Positions 1-51,000 of a stretch of 64,000 bases of DNA are shown here, piece by piece. The DNA is from Nitrospinaceae bacterium (lineage in GTDB: Bacteria; Nitrospinota; Nitrospinia; Nitrospinales; Nitrospinaceae). Each line of letters opens with the position of its first letter. Position 1 is the first letter of the stretch. Location of the stretch: positions 2,144,001-2,208,000 of the forward strand of contig OZ245011.1 of the NCBI GenBank assembly GCA_965223665.1, given 5' to 3'. Made by a program: the position numbers.

Positions 1-3000
1 TCCCCAATCTCATCCAGAAACAAAGAACCCTGCGCACTACAGCGTTCGAACAGTCCGGTATAATCCGCCACCGCACCGGTAAAGGCTCCTTTACAATGAC
101 CGAACAGTTCCGATTCAATCAAGGTTTCCGGAAATTGCGACAGGTTGATGGCCATAAAAGTATCATTAAAGTTATGAGTAAAAACTCCTTTTTTCGGATC
201 GTACGGAATGTAAGCGGAACGGCCAATGGCAGAGGCGGCGGCCCCTTTCCCTGTTCCGGTTTCCCCTAACAGCATGGTTGAAAAGTCATCCATTCGATTC
301 CACAGATGGTTTTCATAAATGCGCACGTCATGGGTGAATACATTATTCCATAAAGACCATCGGAGCTTTTTCATGGAGGGACTGTTTCCCGTCAGCGTCC
401 TAGAAATAAAATGAAATGCCCGGCGAAATTGGTAGAAAATGCCGATGTATCGAATCGCCGTCTCCTCCTCAAAGCCCCGCTCTATTAATTCCCGCAGCAT
501 GGATTTGGCAAACCGGGTATATTGCCGGAAAGTGGAAGGATTGGATACGGACTGAATCAGCTTTTCAATGTCCGGTACGTACCGCCTATAAATATGGAAC
601 AGAAACGCATACTCCAACAGTTGGCGGTCTTCTTCGGAATAACTTGCCAGAACCACCTTCCCCTGTTTTTCCAAACGCGTTAACCGGTCATTCAAAGGTT
701 CAAAAAACGCCTCCATGAAATGCATGGGTTGTCGTTTTTTGGGAGGCTTCTCGTTAAAAAAATTATTCTTCAGAACATTCCATTCATCACTGAAGGGATT
801 GGTGAATATGATTTCCGCCGCAAGGGTAAAGAATTTTTTATCTTCCGCTTTAAGCTGATTTCTTTTCATTATTTCTTCCTATTGAGATCTTTGCGTCAGT
901 TAGAAAAAATAAAACCCCTGAAGGTGAATCCCCCCAGCCGCGGCCCCCGGCCGCTGGGAAATTAATTTTCTTAAGGTAACTTTTAGTGCTTATGGTCTTT
1001 CAATTTTTGAAAATCTTTATTGCTTCCAATCGCTAGATTGGAAAAGAGGGAGCACATCGGTCTCCGTCTTTATCTCTATTGTATTTGGTTAAATAATCTA
1101 ACTTAGGCAAAGATTTCCTTCCTGCACAACACTATACAAATAATGCATATATTATATACAATTTTTGCATATATTGCCATTCAACCTCTTCTGCTCCCAG
1201 TGTGCCAACTCCTTAGTTTTATGGAGCTTTTAAGGTTTACGCGTCTTGGCACAGTCTTTGCCTAGTGTTCTATGAGTATCGTTATTATTTTTTTCATGGA
1301 CTATGATGGCAAGGAACTTACATCCCAGTAAACAGGCAACTCCTTACAGTACGCAGAAGTCTGCTTTTGGTTGGGGTTTTTATTTGTTACTGACTTGCCT
1401 GATCTCTACAGCAGTGGGATTGAGTTTATCCGTTTCTGAAAACTTACTGCTCTGGTTTCCGGGGCAATTGATTTTAGCGGTGGCTTTGCTGCAGTGGTTC
1501 ATTCTTTTGCACGAGTCCGGTCATTACACTTTGTTCCCTGAAAAAATCTGGAACCACGTGACCGGTCATCTCGCTTCCCTGTTTTCTGCAATCCCTTTTT
1601 ATTCCTGGAGTCAGGTTCATCATCTTCATCATGTATGGACCGGTTGGCAGGACCTCGATCCCACGACTGAAACGTTGGTTCCAAAAAACCTTTCAGCGTG
1701 GAAGCGAAGTTTCATCAATGTCTGCTGGAAATTTCACATCCCTGTATTCGCAATTATTTATCGATTTCAAAACTTCTGGAATTTGCGTCGCCTTGAAAAA
1801 TTCATGGGTTCTTCCAAACGCTTAAAGAAAATGCGATGGAATTCTTTAGCGCTGCTTTTGATTTACGGATTGCTGGGCTATCAATTGGAGCCGGAAAAAA
1901 TTTTGCAGCTTGTCGGACTGGCCCTGCCGCTCACTTTATTACTGCAGGAAACCATTTTACTCAGTCAGCACACGCACATTCCTATGCAACTGAGCCATGG
2001 AAAAGAGGTCGCACCGTTTTCTCATAGCCAGCAAGTGCAGTTTACTCGATCGCTGTTGTTTCCCAAATGGGTATCCCAATGGATTCTGTTTTCATTTGAT
2101 CAACATGAATTGCATCACAAGTATGTTCACGTTCCGGGCTACCGATTACAACAAGTGGCAGACAGACAGACTCAATCCATGAAATGGTATCCGTGGGTAA
2201 AAGAGGTTCGGAAAATTCCCGGTGAAATTTTCCTTTTTAAAAATCGTCAACAATCACAAATAAACTTATGAGTTCACTATTTAATTCCAGCACATTAGCA
2301 AATCCCGATCCTAACGTGGTGACACTGTTTCTGCTGATCACGTTCATCGCTTCGGGAGTTTTATATTCTGCATGGATGCTGAGCCCACTTTCCAAACCAT
2401 TTAACACTCCTGTGGATGGAGGAAGAACCTTCCGCGGTAAAAGAATTTTCGGAGACAATAAAACCTATCGCGGTTTTACAGGAATGGCTTTGGCAGTGGG
2501 GTTGATGTTTTTACTTTTCGGTTGGTTTCAAGAAAGAATTCCCGGATTAGCCTCCCTCGGCATGTGGCCTTTAAGTCCATTCGCTTATGCTGCGCTCGGC
2601 ATTTGGGTCGGGCTTGGTTTCATGGCCGGAGAGTTGCCCAACTCCTTCTGCAAACGGCAACTCAACATTCCTCCGGGATATGCCGCCGCATCCCCGGGAT
2701 GGCGCGTTCTCTTCCTCTTTACAGATCGTGTGGATTCCATCCTGGGAATGATGGTGGCATTAAGCATGATGGTTCCGGTTCCCGTGCAAACCTGGTGGAC
2801 CGTTCTTATTGTAGGACCGGCAATTCACCTGGGTTTCAGTGCGCTGCTGTTTCTCTTAAAAGTCAAAAGGCGGTTCGCATGAATTTAGCAATTTTTAAAT
2901 CTCCGACTATAGACAAAGCGCTTTCATCTTTCATTGATTTGTCACAAGCGGATCAATTGAAAAATGCAGGAGGAAAAGCTGAAGGATTGTATCAAGCCAT

Positions 3001-48000: not shown

Positions 48001-51000
48001 GTTCTCGTGGTATTTCTCGATATTCTCGCGGGTCCGGTCCCTCGAATTCGGGATGGGTGACCAAATCGTTAGTGAAAATCACTTCGTAACCTTTGCGCGC
48101 CATGATGCGTTGAAAGCTGGCGGGGTCATCGTTCTCTCCCACTCGCCCTCTAAAGTTGAACTGTCCGGATGGCTCGCCCTGACCGGGCATAAACTGGTGC
48201 TGTCCTTCCGCCTCGCTCTCGTTTTCTTTTTTCTTTGAAGTTTCCAAATAGCAAAACATTTATCTCACTCCTGCGGTTAAAGTTATGTTGGTATTAGATC
48301 CTGCGAGCCGGGCCGCCTCTATTCGTATGGCATCGAATCCACTAGGGTATAACAGAAACCAGCCGCGGGTCCCCGACGGCAAAGTCGTCAGGTCGCTACT
48401 GGCGCCGATCAGGACGCCTTCCGGCGTGGTGTAATCGGTCGGAGTGGAATACAACACGCTCCAGGCGCCGCTTTTTTGGGCTCGTGCCGAAATGACAAAT
48501 TGATCAAGATCGGTGGTGTCGGAAAGGATTTGCACAAAGAGGGCATAACGGTAGAGGATCCGTATATCCTTGATGACAGTTAGAGATTCGTCTTCCAACA
48601 CCACCGATGCGGAGACGTATTCTATCGGCTGCGATTTATATCCGTCGTGATTCGACATTCTATATGTTGACTCCTCGCTTGAAGATCGCGGTTATCATTG
48701 ACAGCATGGACCGTGAACATCCATAGCCAGTTGGTTTTCTAATCCGGAAACGTATTGGGTGTGTTTGATGAAATCGGCCTTGTTCAAGCAGGACAGCATT
48801 TCCTGATCGACCACCCCGCTGTTTAAGTATTGCCATTCGATGAAGGGTCGTTGAAACCTTCGAGGCTTTGAAGATACCTGGCTCCACGTGAACCGATCCG
48901 GGTGCCGGGAAGTTTCCACTTGCGAAGTGGCCAGGCGCTGTTGGCACGCATAACTTTCGATGGCATAGTAAACGGCAAAACAAATGCTGTAGACAATCAC
49001 TGCCATTAAAAGGAAACGTTTCATGATCGCGGCACCCCGACCTTATTGACGGGTTTGTCCTTAGGGTTGGAATGAGGTGAGTTTTTCAGTAAATTCCGTT
49101 CCTTTAAGTCGCTTTTCCCTGAGGTCCTTCCATAAGACTGGCGGCTGCCGAGCCAGGCCGCATAAAGCAACAAAACCGTGATGGAAATTATCACTACGAC
49201 TAAAGCTTCGACCATTCCTGCCTCCACTCTTCATCTTTGGGATCCGGGAACATCACGTCCAGCGTTTGTCTCACCGATTCCGAAACATTGGTAGACCCCG
49301 GTTGGTTCTTGCGAATCGAATCTTCGTTTTGCCAGAACTGGTCCCAGTAGATTTTGCTGAGTTGTTGTCCCGAGAGGACATCTTTCACGGTTCCGTCGGG
49401 ACGCTTGACGCGAACTTCATAAAACATGGAAAACCCTGTAAGGAATCAGAATTCAGGCGGGCCGCACTCACACGTTCGCCCAATACTCTATTAATTTACA
49501 AGGTTTCGAAACAAAATGTAATGGAAGGGATAAGTGGAAGTTGGTTGTGGAAGTAATTTATGAATGTTTCACAAGGAACGTAACGTATCAGATAATTTAA
49601 ATATAAGATTCTAGAGGGTGATACCCCCAGCCCTCTTTAAAAAGGAGACCTTTGCGTAAGTCAGAAAAAATAAAACCCCTGAATGTGAATCACCCCGACC
49701 CTCTTTAGGAAAGAGGGCGAACATGGGTTTCCAGTTTTTAATTAGACCTGTTTGTTCAATAATCCTTGCTTATGCAAGGCTCTCTTTAAAAAGAGGGAGC
49801 ACATCTACTTTTATTTTTATGTTTTCTTCTGAAGGAAAAATCCGGAAAGCTATTTCATTGAATTTTGTATTCATTCTTTTGATTTAGGTTTTTGGCGGCG
49901 GATGTGTTCGAGGTTTTTTTGGATGGCCAGGACGTTGGCGTGGTCTTTGCCAAAGGCGGTTTTGAAAATGGCCAACGCGTTTTCAAAATATTCCGTGGCG
50001 ATTTTAGAGTTGCCTTTCATGTACCAGGCGCCGGCCAGGGTGCTCCAATGAAACCCCATCTTCGGATGACTTTTTCCATAAGTGACTCTATCGATGTCCA
50101 TTGCCTTTTCATAATACTCGATCGCTTTGTCCTGATCGCCCTTGCTGCTCCAGGCCACTCCCAGATGGTTCCAGCGTGCGGCCAGGTTGGGATGATCTTC
50201 CCCATAAGTTTTAATATCACTGTTCAAAGCTTTTTCTAAATACTCGATGGCTTTGTCAAAATTCTCTTGTGCACCGTAGGCCGATCCCAGGTTGTTCCAG
50301 TCGGCCGCCACATGCGGATGCTCTTCGCCAAAGTTTTTGAGATCGCTCGCCAGAGCTTTTTCATAATACTCGATGGCATTTTTGTAATTGCCTTTATCCT
50401 GCCAGGCGGTGCCCAGGTTGTTCCAACTGGTGGCCACTCGCGGATGTTTTTCTCCAAACGTTTTCTGGTTGACGGCTAACGCTTTTTCGAAAAACTCAAT
50501 GGCCTTATCGTACTTTTCTTTTTTGGCCCACACTTCACCAAGATGCGTCCACCTTATGGCCAGCTTGGGATGGTCCGGATCATACGTTTTCAGATCACTC
50601 GCCAACGCTTTCTCGTAATACGGAATGGCTTTGTCGTAGTTGCCTTTTCTCTCCCAGGTCATTCCGAGGTTGTTCAGGTTGGTGGCGATGCGTGGATGAT
50701 CTTCGCCATAGTTTTTGATATTGCTGGTCAGGGATTTATTAAAAAACTGGATCGCCTGTTCCAGGTTGCCCTTGTCTCTCCAGGCTTCTCCCAGGTTATT
50801 CCACGCCATGGCGATGAGAGGATGATCGGCACTGTGAGATTTTTTTAAATTTCTAACGGACCTGCCGTAATACTGAATGGCCTTATCGTAGTTACCGAGT
50901 TTTTTAAAAAGAAAACCGTTGGCGTTGGCATACAACGCATTGTCCTGGGCCAGTTGGGCCGCACTTTCCAAATGCTGCAGCGCCTGTGCGTATCTGGCCT

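Follow-up and report, generated by a model that had tools for sequence, protein, structure and literature searches.

How a set of phage structural genes comes to be kept at one chromosomal site in two species, and what the small secreted proteins encoded among those genes might do, are questions raised by a locus in a Nitrospinaceae bacterium (contig OZ245011.1; G000, the studied genome), compared here with the genome of a second Nitrospinaceae species (G001). The window is the whole stretch of 64,000 nucleotides that was analyzed, and all feature coordinates count within it, with position 1 at contig position 2,144,001. We consider it about an even call that the locus is a non-autonomous, rearranged set of structural and packaging genes from a BPP-1/epsilon15-type podophage, with head genes that are kept functional by selection and with interleaved lysin-immunity modules made of SLT-domain and 160-aa genes. 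Within this reading, the evidence supports the view that both species carry, at one shared locus, a structural element that derives from a phage and is non-autonomous.

The head-module genes lie on the minus strand. They encode the portal (23911..25569; PF12236, 4.3e-152), a Bbp19-like protein (23580..23909; PF25181, 2e-07), a scaffold/protease-like protein (22889..23629; phrog_458, 2e-38), the major capsid protein of the GP7 family (21645..22652; PF20911, 6.4e-130), a Bbp16-like head protein (21201..21590; PF21190, 4.5e-13), and a gp14-like internal virion protein (20344..20871; PF24072, 3.4e-08; phrog_418, 9.5e-21), and are accompanied by two internal-virion-type genes of about 1100 aa. A 1112-aa internal-virion-type protein, gp15-like by position (16942..20280, minus; phrog_6651, 1.4e-08), has mosaic homology to G001 proteins, and a 708-aa gp15-like paralogue is encoded at 34326..36452 (minus). 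The genes for tail tubular A, tail tubular B, and a fibre are located upstream, outside the window. An earlier note had described a podovirus-type head gene set, which these matches bear out; its term ‘T7-like’ holds for the podophage set, but not in the strict sense, the closest relatives being BPP-1/epsilon15-type podophages. The same note was wrong in stating that there is no recognizable terminase, because both subunits can be recognized at the locus: the small one at 38123..38647 (minus; PF03592, 2.1e-33) and the large one, of 521 aa, at 36649..38214 (minus; phrog_5902), which is 53–55% identical, across >90% of its length, to proteins annotated as large terminases in phiV10/epsilon15-type phages (53% to the phiV10 type).

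Identity to BPP-1, a Bordetella phage (Rauchvirus), is 47% for the portal, 44% for the capsid (Bbp17), 41% for tubular A, 40–51% for tubular B, 36% for the gp14-like protein, and 30% for the scaffold; the SLT domain of the short partner proteins described below is 32% identical to that of Bbp11. Compared with BPP-1, the genes stand in a scrambled order, with tubular A, tubular B, and GNAT shifted from their positions there. Unlike in BPP-1/epsilon15/phiV10-type phages, ejection genes are duplicated, and cassettes and host genes are interleaved. The element is syntenic in G001, as reported before, with the non-canonical architecture kept in both species. Neither tail tubular A nor tail tubular B was found in G001, which widens a gap already noted for one tail protein and makes particle formation there doubtful.

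Head genes are under strong purifying selection (dN/dS 0.002–0.09). Between the two species the portal differs at 104 nucleotides, distributed 6/0/98 by codon position, and at 1 of 552 residues, exactly as first reported (dN/dS 0.002, dS 0.35), and for the nine remaining head and packaging genes dN/dS is 0.02–0.14. In a set of 31 core ORF pairs, smaller than the 258 proteins sampled earlier, one reaches at least 99.5% identity. Ejection and fibre proteins are 33–45% identical in whole-length alignments, close to the 33–44% given previously, and an identity of 80% in the fibre is confined to the N-terminal 390 aa. Synonymous divergence in the head and packaging genes ranges from 0.10 to 0.87, with a median of about 0.39, and is lower than in the 31 core ORF pairs (median 0.89) and six flanking pairs (median 0.85). 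The suspicion that divergence here is below the genome average was therefore justified, and of the description ‘long-resident, possibly domesticated phage-derived element’ the phage origin stands and the long residence is weakened. The low values do not demonstrate strict co-divergence with the host, and may reflect exchange between the lineages after their split, or synonymous constraint. In being a syntenic cluster of structural and packaging genes only, under purifying selection in two species, the element resembles, at the level of genes, gene transfer agents and other domesticated phage-derived particles. Known gene transfer agents are siphovirus-like or of other types; unlike them, this element has a dS below the host baseline and incomplete tail genes in G001.

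The same low dS would be expected of a circulating temperate phage that uses one integration site in both species, in which case conservation would be due to selection acting on the phages and not to domestication. A third variant on G001 contig C9 also fits this proposal, as do the diverged contigs and repeat joints in the same samples. The portal copy on C9 differs from that on contig C13 of G001 at 34 sites, with none of 495 residues changed, and had been suggested to belong to a free phage; however, between cassettes C9 has a TPR gene of 1418 aa and an rve IS transposase, so it is not a free phage. Furthermore, neither integrase nor replication families were found among the 59+16 ORFs scanned at the locus (Pfam, PHROGs), and, unlike BPP-1/epsilon15/phiV10-type phages, the locus gave no integrase, repressor, polymerase, primase, or DGR hit, in agreement with the earlier report of no recognizable polymerase. 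No att-like direct repeat of at least 12 nt occurs at the element borders, the locus spans 49–61 kb compared with 42.5 kb for BPP-1, no relatives of the portal were found in IMG/VR, and host genes lie inside the element in the studied genome. A circulating phage is thus very unlikely.

These host genes form an insertion of ∼11 kb, the host-type block at 1..10615 (identified with Pfam), which is specific to the studied genome. It contains the 3′ part of a sigma-54 activator (minus), followed by a lipid-type cluster (plus) of desaturase, CarS-like, PPDK-like, methyltransferase, acyltransferase, and NAD_binding_4/APH genes, and has no DNA match in G001 apart from a short interspersed repeat at 880–1123.

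The 160-aa secreted family has 12 full copies in the studied genome, 11 in the window and one upstream, plus a fragment (28262..28396, plus), and 18 matches in G001. A search of 59 other relatives found it in none, and it is genus-specific on that sampling; both the twelve paralogues and the restriction to the genus had been described before. In the sequences two cysteines are invariant and the signal peptide has an AxA site, and there is neither a lipobox nor a membrane anchor. The fold remains unmatched, as stated earlier: no sequence or fold relatives were detectable (best Foldseek E-value 1.1, best VIA Z 5.8), including Spackle or any lysozyme inhibitor. The motif TGnTAnAWW, an extended −10 box, ends exactly 8 nt before the ATG in 22 of 26 members, compared with a background in which 35 of 3222 ORF starts have it no more than 21 nt upstream. 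This spacing implies leaderless mRNAs from the members’ own promoters.

A convergent ORF overlaps eight of the 12 members; the overlap measures 38 nt in seven cases and 44 nt in the other, and falls at a homologous codon position. The overlaps were known, with SLT domains assigned to three of the partners; in fact all eight end in a homologous SLT-like domain, which is common to the long (L, about 1100 aa, gp16-like) and short (S, 300–345 aa, with a conserved disordered N-terminus) partner classes (hhalign 99.8%, E 1e-27). Family members in the window are on the plus strand and partners on the minus strand. In the L class, the member at 10666..11148 overlaps by 38 nt an 80-aa remnant of an SLT-like C-terminus (11111–11353), and that at 11930..12430 (likely start 11948) overlaps, also by 38 nt, the gene for an 1105-aa ejection-type protein (12393..15710). 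The C-terminal domain of this protein falls below the Pfam cut-off (SLT, 0.0031), is homologous to the S class (hhalign 99.8%), and does not conserve the catalytic Glu. Overlaps of 38 nt also join the member at 29270..29752 to a frameshifted remnant (29715–30448), and the member at 30564..31046 to a second gp16-like gene (31009..34302). The latter is one frame of 1097 codons with two in-frame stops (TAA at 33343–33345, TAG at 32764–32766), and its SLT-like domain retains a Glu-Ser motif.

In the S class, two tandem members (26252..27288; an orphan at 26252–26731 and a second at 26803–27288) adjoin an SLT gene broken by a frameshift and an in-frame stop (27240..28187). The pair at 38686..39687 consists of an orphan (38686–39165) and a member (39181–39687) with the 44-nt overlap, whose partner is a 345-aa protein with a conserved disordered N-terminus and an SLT domain (39644..40681; PF01464, 1.3e-08). 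The pair at 40750..41726 likewise consists of an orphan (40750–41229) and a member (41247–41726) that overlaps by 38 nt the gene for a 300-aa protein (41689..42591), in which residues 1–125 are predicted to be disordered and residues 130–300 to adopt a family-1 lytic transglycosylase fold. Finally, the member at 42660..43145 overlaps by 38 nt the gene for a 309-aa SLT protein (43108..44037; PF01464, 1.3e-12).

S-class domains are bona fide SLT domains, scoring above the Pfam cut-off and with Slt70, MltC, MltE, and MltF as top Foldseek matches, and the catalytic Glu is invariant in 10 of 10. In L-class domains the aligned position holds Asp in two of nine and another residue in six of nine, so enzyme inhibition cannot be the whole story for most of them. 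Across 18 pairs, the identity matrices of members and SLT domains are correlated (Mantel r 0.87, 0 of 5000 permutations). S-class paralogues have an N-terminal dS of 0.18–0.38 compared with a C-terminal dS of 1.6 or saturated, the mosaic of conserved head and variable tail that polymorphic toxins show. Pairwise dN/dS is 0.09–0.39 in members and SLT domains, with no gene-wide positive selection in either. Together with the Mantel correlation, the C-terminal divergence supports the earlier suggestion that lysin/partner cassettes are diversifying.

Duplicated linked cassettes with no physical interaction would also give co-diversification and a fixed 38-nt overlap.

For the S-class protein at 41689..42591 and the member at 41247, complex prediction gave ipSAE values of 0.71, 0.00, and 0.69 (median 0.69, one of three runs being 0.00), compared with 0.00 for the best of three controls; the mark used is reached by 116 of 157 solved pairs and, among mismatched pairs, by 2 of 215. 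The partner had a pLDDT of at least 65, and for the agreement between runs the stated figure is no more precise than at least 0% of contacts. Columns at the predicted interface vary more than remaining columns, a comparison with no surface-only control, in both members (2.17 vs 1.47 bits, p 0.0015) and SLT domains (1.62 vs 1.21 bits, p 0.018), and the catalytic Glu171 is outside the predicted interface. The model thus supports predicted binding of a 160-aa member to its cognate SLT-like domain.

An ordinary decaying prophage remnant would need no such binding, the 160-aa family being a moron or hitch-hiking paralogues unlinked in function to the SLT domains, and the overlap would be a legacy of a single ancestral duplication unit. 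Of the 10 partner genes in the studied genome, five are indeed broken or truncated, with in-frame stops and frameshifts, and the host-gene insertion, the IS in the C9 variant, and the scrambled order are what decay would produce; the Mantel correlation could be explained by linkage alone. However, none of the 12 full-length members is broken, and their promoter is conserved and its spacing fixed; the portal has a single amino-acid change but 98 changes at third positions, dN/dS in other head genes does not exceed 0.14 over dS 0.1–0.9, the complex prediction passes against its controls, and the non-canonical architecture is retained in both species. We consider simple decay unlikely.

The array of secreted proteins and SLT domains looks like a new lysin/immunity system. 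In each module, the C-terminal SLT-like domain of a virion/ejection-type protein is followed tail-to-tail, with the 38-nt overlap, by a 160-aa gene. Expression of the 160-aa proteins would be constitutive, with leaderless mRNAs starting at the extended −10 promoter of each gene; the proteins would be exported through the Sec signal peptide and would fold in the periplasm into disulfide-stabilized helical bundles. There they may bind the variable face of the cognate domain and so neutralize the domain as immunity or inhibitor proteins, a role comparable with that of T4 Spackle towards gp5 lysozyme or of Pim towards pesticin. Carriers might be protected from their own lysin/ejection proteins or from those of related particles (superinfection exclusion), and an arms race could generate the many diverged pairs and orphan immunity genes.

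T4 Spackle (gp61.3) is described as a small, helical, periplasmic phage protein with a signal peptide that complexes with the gp5 tail lysozyme in superinfection exclusion (PMC7677548). The 160-aa proteins are likewise small, with a signal peptide, and putatively helical and periplasmic, and their partner, by model-predicted binding, is a cell-wall-cutting domain of a virion protein. They differ in having no detectable sequence or fold similarity to Spackle, in an SLT-type transglycosylase-like target instead of T4 lysozyme, in numbering dozens of diverged cognate pairs and orphans where T4 has a single gene, in convergent, overlapping pair genes, and in a non-autonomous carrier. Alternatively, they could be accessory life-cycle factors (lysis regulators, spanin-like proteins, or periplasmic receptors for an incoming ejection protein) and not inhibitors. 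The predicted binding is silent on its sign, and L-class domains lacking the catalytic Glu still have a partner; however, members are oppositely oriented, with their own promoter and independent of the structural operon, lack a lipobox or membrane anchor, and persist as orphans after partner loss, and we hold such a role to be quite improbable.

The lysin/immunity reading also has parallels in polymorphic effector-immunity systems, of which the T6SS Tge/Tgi type is an example. As in these, and in pesticin/Pim and colicin M/Cmi, a conserved N-terminal part precedes a variable peptidoglycan-targeting C-terminal domain, with an adjoining cognate, here putative, periplasmic immunity gene and orphan immunity genes. 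Unlike in those systems, the pairs sit among genes for phage structural proteins, the carriers in the L class are ejection-type proteins of 1100 aa whose domains mostly have no catalytic Glu, and no secretion or uptake domain was identified in the proteins here. Competition between neighbours is a related proposal, in which a domesticated podophage particle, or S-class proteins acting as pesticin-like bacteriocins, would bring polymorphic cell-wall effectors to other cells, with the 160-aa proteins giving kin immunity. The Mantel correlation, S-class dS mosaic, and predicted complex fit it equally; head genes are under selection in an element without replication and integration genes, and orphan immunity-like genes exist. 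The conserved 125-residue disordered N-terminus and variable catalytic C-terminus of the S class also resemble the translocation-plus-killing organization of colicins and pesticin (for pesticin, PMC3390615). Against this, S-class proteins lack an export signal, most L-class domains lack the catalytic Glu, and particle production would have to be assumed, with the tail tubular genes not found in G001. Delivery to neighbours is therefore also improbable.

Beyond the cassettes, the minus strand at 44658..49427 encodes a repeat-rich, fibre-like protein of 705 aa and has nine small genes, of which two code for an N-terminal TM segment; these have no family match and are 75–98% identical to their G001 counterparts. 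Next to the portal, two small Arg-rich proteins of 67 and 119 aa (25569..26136, minus) share an ‘R-rich...TLL’ motif, defined post hoc, with the S-class N-termini.

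A podophage-derived set of head, packaging and tail genes is present in full in the genome of this Nitrospinaceae bacterium (assembly GCA_965223665.1; genome G000), with portal, capsid, scaffold, tubular A and B, internal virion proteins, fibre and terminase all represented and the head genes in single copy. This element is read from the minus strand of the window, where it comprises TerS (38123-38647), a 521-aa TerL (36649-38214), the portal (23911-25569; PF12236, 4e-152), a Bbp19-like gene (23580-23909; PF25181), a scaffold/protease-like gene (22889-23629; phrog_458), the capsid (21645-22652; PF20911, 6e-130), a Bbp16-like gene (21201-21590; PF21190), a gp14-like gene (20344-20871; PF24072), an internal-virion-type protein of 1112 aa (16942-20280; phrog_6651) and an 1105-aa protein with a weak SLT match (12393-15710). 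Tail tubular A (phrog_394, 1e-39) and tail tubular B (phrog_376, 8e-196) lie upstream of the window, as do a GNAT gene, an 893-aa gene of the same class as the 1105-aa protein, one member of the secreted family described below and a 1007-aa fibre. The earlier note had seen no recognisable terminase here, and this was wrong: annotated large terminases from phages of the phiV10/epsilon15 type match the 521-aa protein with 53-55% identity across more than 90% of its length, and TerS matches PF03592 (2e-33). A phmmer search of the PDB with TerL, which returned weak Sf6 gp2 matches only (E 0.019), is superseded by this comparison.

Some genes of the element are harder to place. The labels ‘gp15-like’ and ‘gp16-like’ are based on position, size and weak PHROG matches. 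A 705-aa protein (44658-46775) with internal Ig-like repeats and short C-terminal repeats, 92% identical in the sister species (genome G001), has no family match and no phage match; it may belong to the fibre or decorate the particle. The element's far end (48695-49227) holds two small genes, of 109 and 68 aa, whose products have one hydrophobic segment each, at the N-terminus; they are possible lysis genes. The genes of 67 and 119 aa next to the portal (25569-26136) and the N-termini of the S-class proteins described below (for example, 43108-44037) have in common an Arg-rich stretch with (R/P/S)(R/P/S)TLL after it. Five of its six genome-wide matches fall inside the element, a localisation that is only a lead because the motif was defined after it had been seen; it may be a signal for virion incorporation or processing.

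The closest characterised relative is BPP-1, with identities of 47% for the portal, 44% for the capsid, 41% for tubular A and 40-51% for tubular B; no close relative of the portal was found in IMG/VR. Gene order is scrambled relative to BPP-1, with tubular A, tubular B and the GNAT gene displaced and, unlike in BPP-1, the gp15/gp16-like pair duplicated between TerL and portal. The element is also interrupted by an 11.5-kb block (1-10615) that has no DNA counterpart in G001. It consists of a sigma-54 activator and a lipid-type cluster (1303-10615) encoding a fatty acid desaturase, a CarS-like protein, a split PPDK-like protein, a methyltransferase, an acyltransferase and a NAD_binding_4 reductase fused to an APH/EcKL kinase domain. 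Between the activator and the desaturase gene lies an interspersed repeat about 240 nt long (880-1123), which has 58 matches in G001, every one in 2.07-2.83 Mb of its contig C13 or in small contigs; short repeats of this kind were also met in other comparisons of synteny between the two genomes. Compared with a complete BPP-1-like or T7-like prophage, the structural and terminase set is present but no replication, lysogeny or integration modules or att sites were detected: integrase, repressor, primase and polymerase families had no match among the 75 ORFs scanned, and no direct repeat of at least 12 nt was found joining the two borders. A search of G001 (98% complete) with the G000 proteins did not recover tubular A or B. 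As a structural-only cluster, held in the same place under purifying selection in two species, the element resembles a gene transfer agent at the level of its genes.

The head genes are under long-lasting functional constraint. The portal figures of the earlier note were reproduced exactly, with 104 differences between the two species (6/0/98 by codon position) and 1/552 residues changed, which corresponds to a dS of 0.35 and a dN/dS of 0.002; for the remaining head and packaging genes, dS is 0.10-0.87 and dN/dS 0.02-0.14. The median dS is 0.89 for the core (31 ORF pairs drawn from two regions of 20 kb, including an antisense-ORF pair with dS 0.004) and 0.85 for six flanking pairs, so that silent sites of the head module are about half as diverged as those of the host. 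This fits either later exchange between lineages or codon constraint. The figures support functional constraint over a long period, but not residence of the element since the species split. Among the core genes, too, dS is lowest in a long cluster of high conservation. In a separate stretch of the same contig (3,002,631-3,008,611; 2631-8611 of stretch L039), a core cluster encoding proteins of 1153, 435 and 336 aa has an unusually low dS of 0.12-0.26, well under the core median, and 97-100% protein identity; part of this cluster is present in G001 a second time, in diverged form. A partial portal copy on contig C9 of G001 differs from the copy on C13 at 34 sites (1/0/33) and at 0/495 residues. 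It had been suggested that the C9 copy may be a free phage, but on C9 a TPR gene of 1418 aa and an rve-type transposase lie between cassettes, which makes it not a free phage but a variant of the chromosome or a second copy.

Scattered through the element are members of a family of secreted proteins of about 160 aa. The G000 genome has 12 full copies, all of them intact, and one fragment; G001 has 18 matches, and none were found in the 59 other relatives searched. In the species genome collection the family occurs in G001 only, and among 1.84 billion representative proteins it forms just six tight clusters, two of which stem from other short contigs (9,962 and 19,271 bases). Searches of JGI metagenome contigs, Pfam, PHROG, NCBIfam and, for look-alikes, the ESM Atlas gave no match; a PADLOC hit to Cas2d (21.7 bits, in one of four members scanned) was taken as chance. 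In every member a signal peptide of the Sec type, with an AxA site, can be read from the sequence, and two Cys are invariant; a disulfide between Cys35 and Cys94 is possible. An AlphaFold model of a member, confident in its mature part (mean pLDDT 83, with 10-residue blocks at 86-96 from residue 31 to 150), is a helical bundle with a hairpin. Nothing stands out in fold searches of this model (best Foldseek E 1.1; best VIA Z 5.8 in wide mode) and there is no PDB match by profile, T4 Spackle included, to which a distant relationship may nevertheless exist. The fold, helical and confidently predicted, appears to be new, with no relatives detectable among those representatives.

Of the 12 members, eight overlap a partner gene in convergent orientation, by 38 nt in seven cases and 44 nt in one, with the partner's stop codon placed within the member's conserved F-N-F codons. 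Orphan members retain some 20 nt from the 3' end of a partner. One homologous domain forms the C-terminus of every partner, and the two partner classes, S (300-345 aa) and L (about 1100 aa), align there over 147 columns (hhalign 99.8%, E 1e-27). In the S class, the N-terminal 125 residues are predicted to be disordered, yet are 65-81% identical among copies. Matches to SLT (PF01464) score 34.8, 44.6 and 47.8 bits for the 345-, 300- and 309-aa proteins (cut-off 21.3), the catalytic Glu of a Glu-Ser motif is invariant in 10/10 sequences, and residues 130-300 are modelled with pLDDT 90-97 as a goose-lysozyme-like fold for which the top Foldseek matches listed are lytic transglycosylases throughout. 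Profile, Glu and modelled fold all point to a family-1 lytic transglycosylase; a search limited to near lengths found this class in these two assemblies only. The L class is gp16-like by position and size. Its Pfam SLT matches of 17.5 and 16.4 bits lie under the curated cut-off, and its catalytic position, in an alignment read by eye with a one-column ambiguity, holds Glu in 1/9, Asp in 2/9 and another residue in 6/9. By the hhalign comparison its C-terminal domain is homologous to the SLT domain, with the catalytic Glu mostly absent. Five of the ten partner genes in G000 are damaged: an 80-aa remnant, a frameshifted remnant, a broken S-class gene, the N-truncated 893-aa gene and a gp16-like frame of 1097 codons (31009-34302), the one L-class copy to keep the Glu-Ser motif, whose sole interruptions are an in-frame TAA and TAG.

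Members and SLT domains vary together. Across 18 pairs their identity matrices correlate (Mantel r 0.87, reached in 0/5000 permutations), a correlation that could be produced by linkage alone. Among S-class paralogues, dS is 0.18-0.38 in the N-terminal part vs 1.6 or saturated in the C-terminal part, so that the variable unit is the SLT domain together with the member. Both are under purifying selection (pairwise dN/dS 0.09-0.39), looser than that on the head genes. Binding of a member to its cognate domain is supported, short of proof, by a complex prediction for one cognate pair, the SLT domain of the 300-aa protein and its member. This scored 0.71, 0.00 and 0.69 (median 0.69), with 0.00 for the best control, against a mark reached by 116/157 solved and 2/215 mismatched pairs, with a partner pLDDT of 65 or higher and an agreement between runs given only as at least 0%. 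The predicted interface does not include Glu171, and its columns are more variable than all other columns, buried or exposed, in both proteins (p 0.0015 and 0.018). In architecture, the genes resemble polymorphic effector-immunity systems, with a constant N-terminal part, a variable C-terminal domain, an adjoining cognate gene and orphans.

The members are predicted to be expressed separately from the structural genes. The motif TGnTAnAWW ends exactly 8 nt before the ATG in 22/26 members (10/12 in G000), which have no Shine-Dalgarno-like stretch; as background, it occurs anywhere within 21 nt upstream in 35/3222 ORF starts. This spacing predicts leaderless transcripts from the members' own promoters, opposite in direction to the structural operons. 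Although inherited within the family, the motif is kept where the remaining upstream DNA ceases to align. A general sigma-70 scan found no overall enrichment (41 sites vs 37.4 expected), and the family-specific motif test was used instead.

On the comparative basis of two genomes, the model with the best support sees the 160-aa proteins as binders, in the periplasm, of cognate SLT-like domains on virion or ejection-type proteins, which they would most likely neutralise, with the pairs carried by a non-autonomous phage-derived element. Since L-class domains are mostly without the Glu, their sequences argue that binding would matter, and not enzyme inhibition alone. To our knowledge, periplasmic neutralisers of virion lysins are essentially represented by one well-studied case, T4 Spackle. 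The role could be to exclude related particles, to guard against the carrier's own lysins or to compete. The proposed logic is comparable to that of Spackle against gp5 (PMC7677548) and of pesticin and Pim (PMC3390615). A bolder and rather improbable reading is that a domesticated podovirus-type particle serves as a delivery device for polymorphic wall-targeting ejection proteins, each with a periplasmic immunity protein from a fold family without detectable relatives. Marine nitrite oxidisers would then have a phage-derived form of interbacterial competition or kin discrimination that differs from tailocins, T6SS and known gene transfer agents. If the binder model is true, about 30 diverged pairs of lysin domain and partner in two genomes would give a natural specificity matrix in which to study how phages are stopped from penetrating the cell wall and how the two sides of a pair evolve together, and slow-growing, hard-to-culture nitrite oxidisers would have retained, and perhaps use, a phage-derived element. 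Leaderless expression, as predicted by the fixed-spacing promoter, is directly testable.

The window lies within a compartment of about 875 kb (contig positions ~1,400,000-2,275,000) of the 4.35-Mb, 38% GC genome, with a GC content of 0.39-0.47 vs about 0.36 elsewhere in the chromosome. Outside it the chromosome is colinear with that of G001 at 82-86% DNA identity; inside, synteny is patchy, and there are numerous paralogous matches and TPR genes. Scans of the window for tRNA and Rfam families gave no match. In short-read contigs (four DNA runs from one study) the cassette region is fragmented, with diverged variants and many repeat-repeat joints whose sides are 41 letters or fewer, a signal too weak for rearrangements to be called. 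Contig pile-ups at 28840-29260 and 44200-44440 suggest a multicopy repeat. Intergenic REP-like palindromes, CCCTCTTTA..AAAGAGGG, occur at the right border of the element (49428-49870) and upstream of 11948, beside a cassette.
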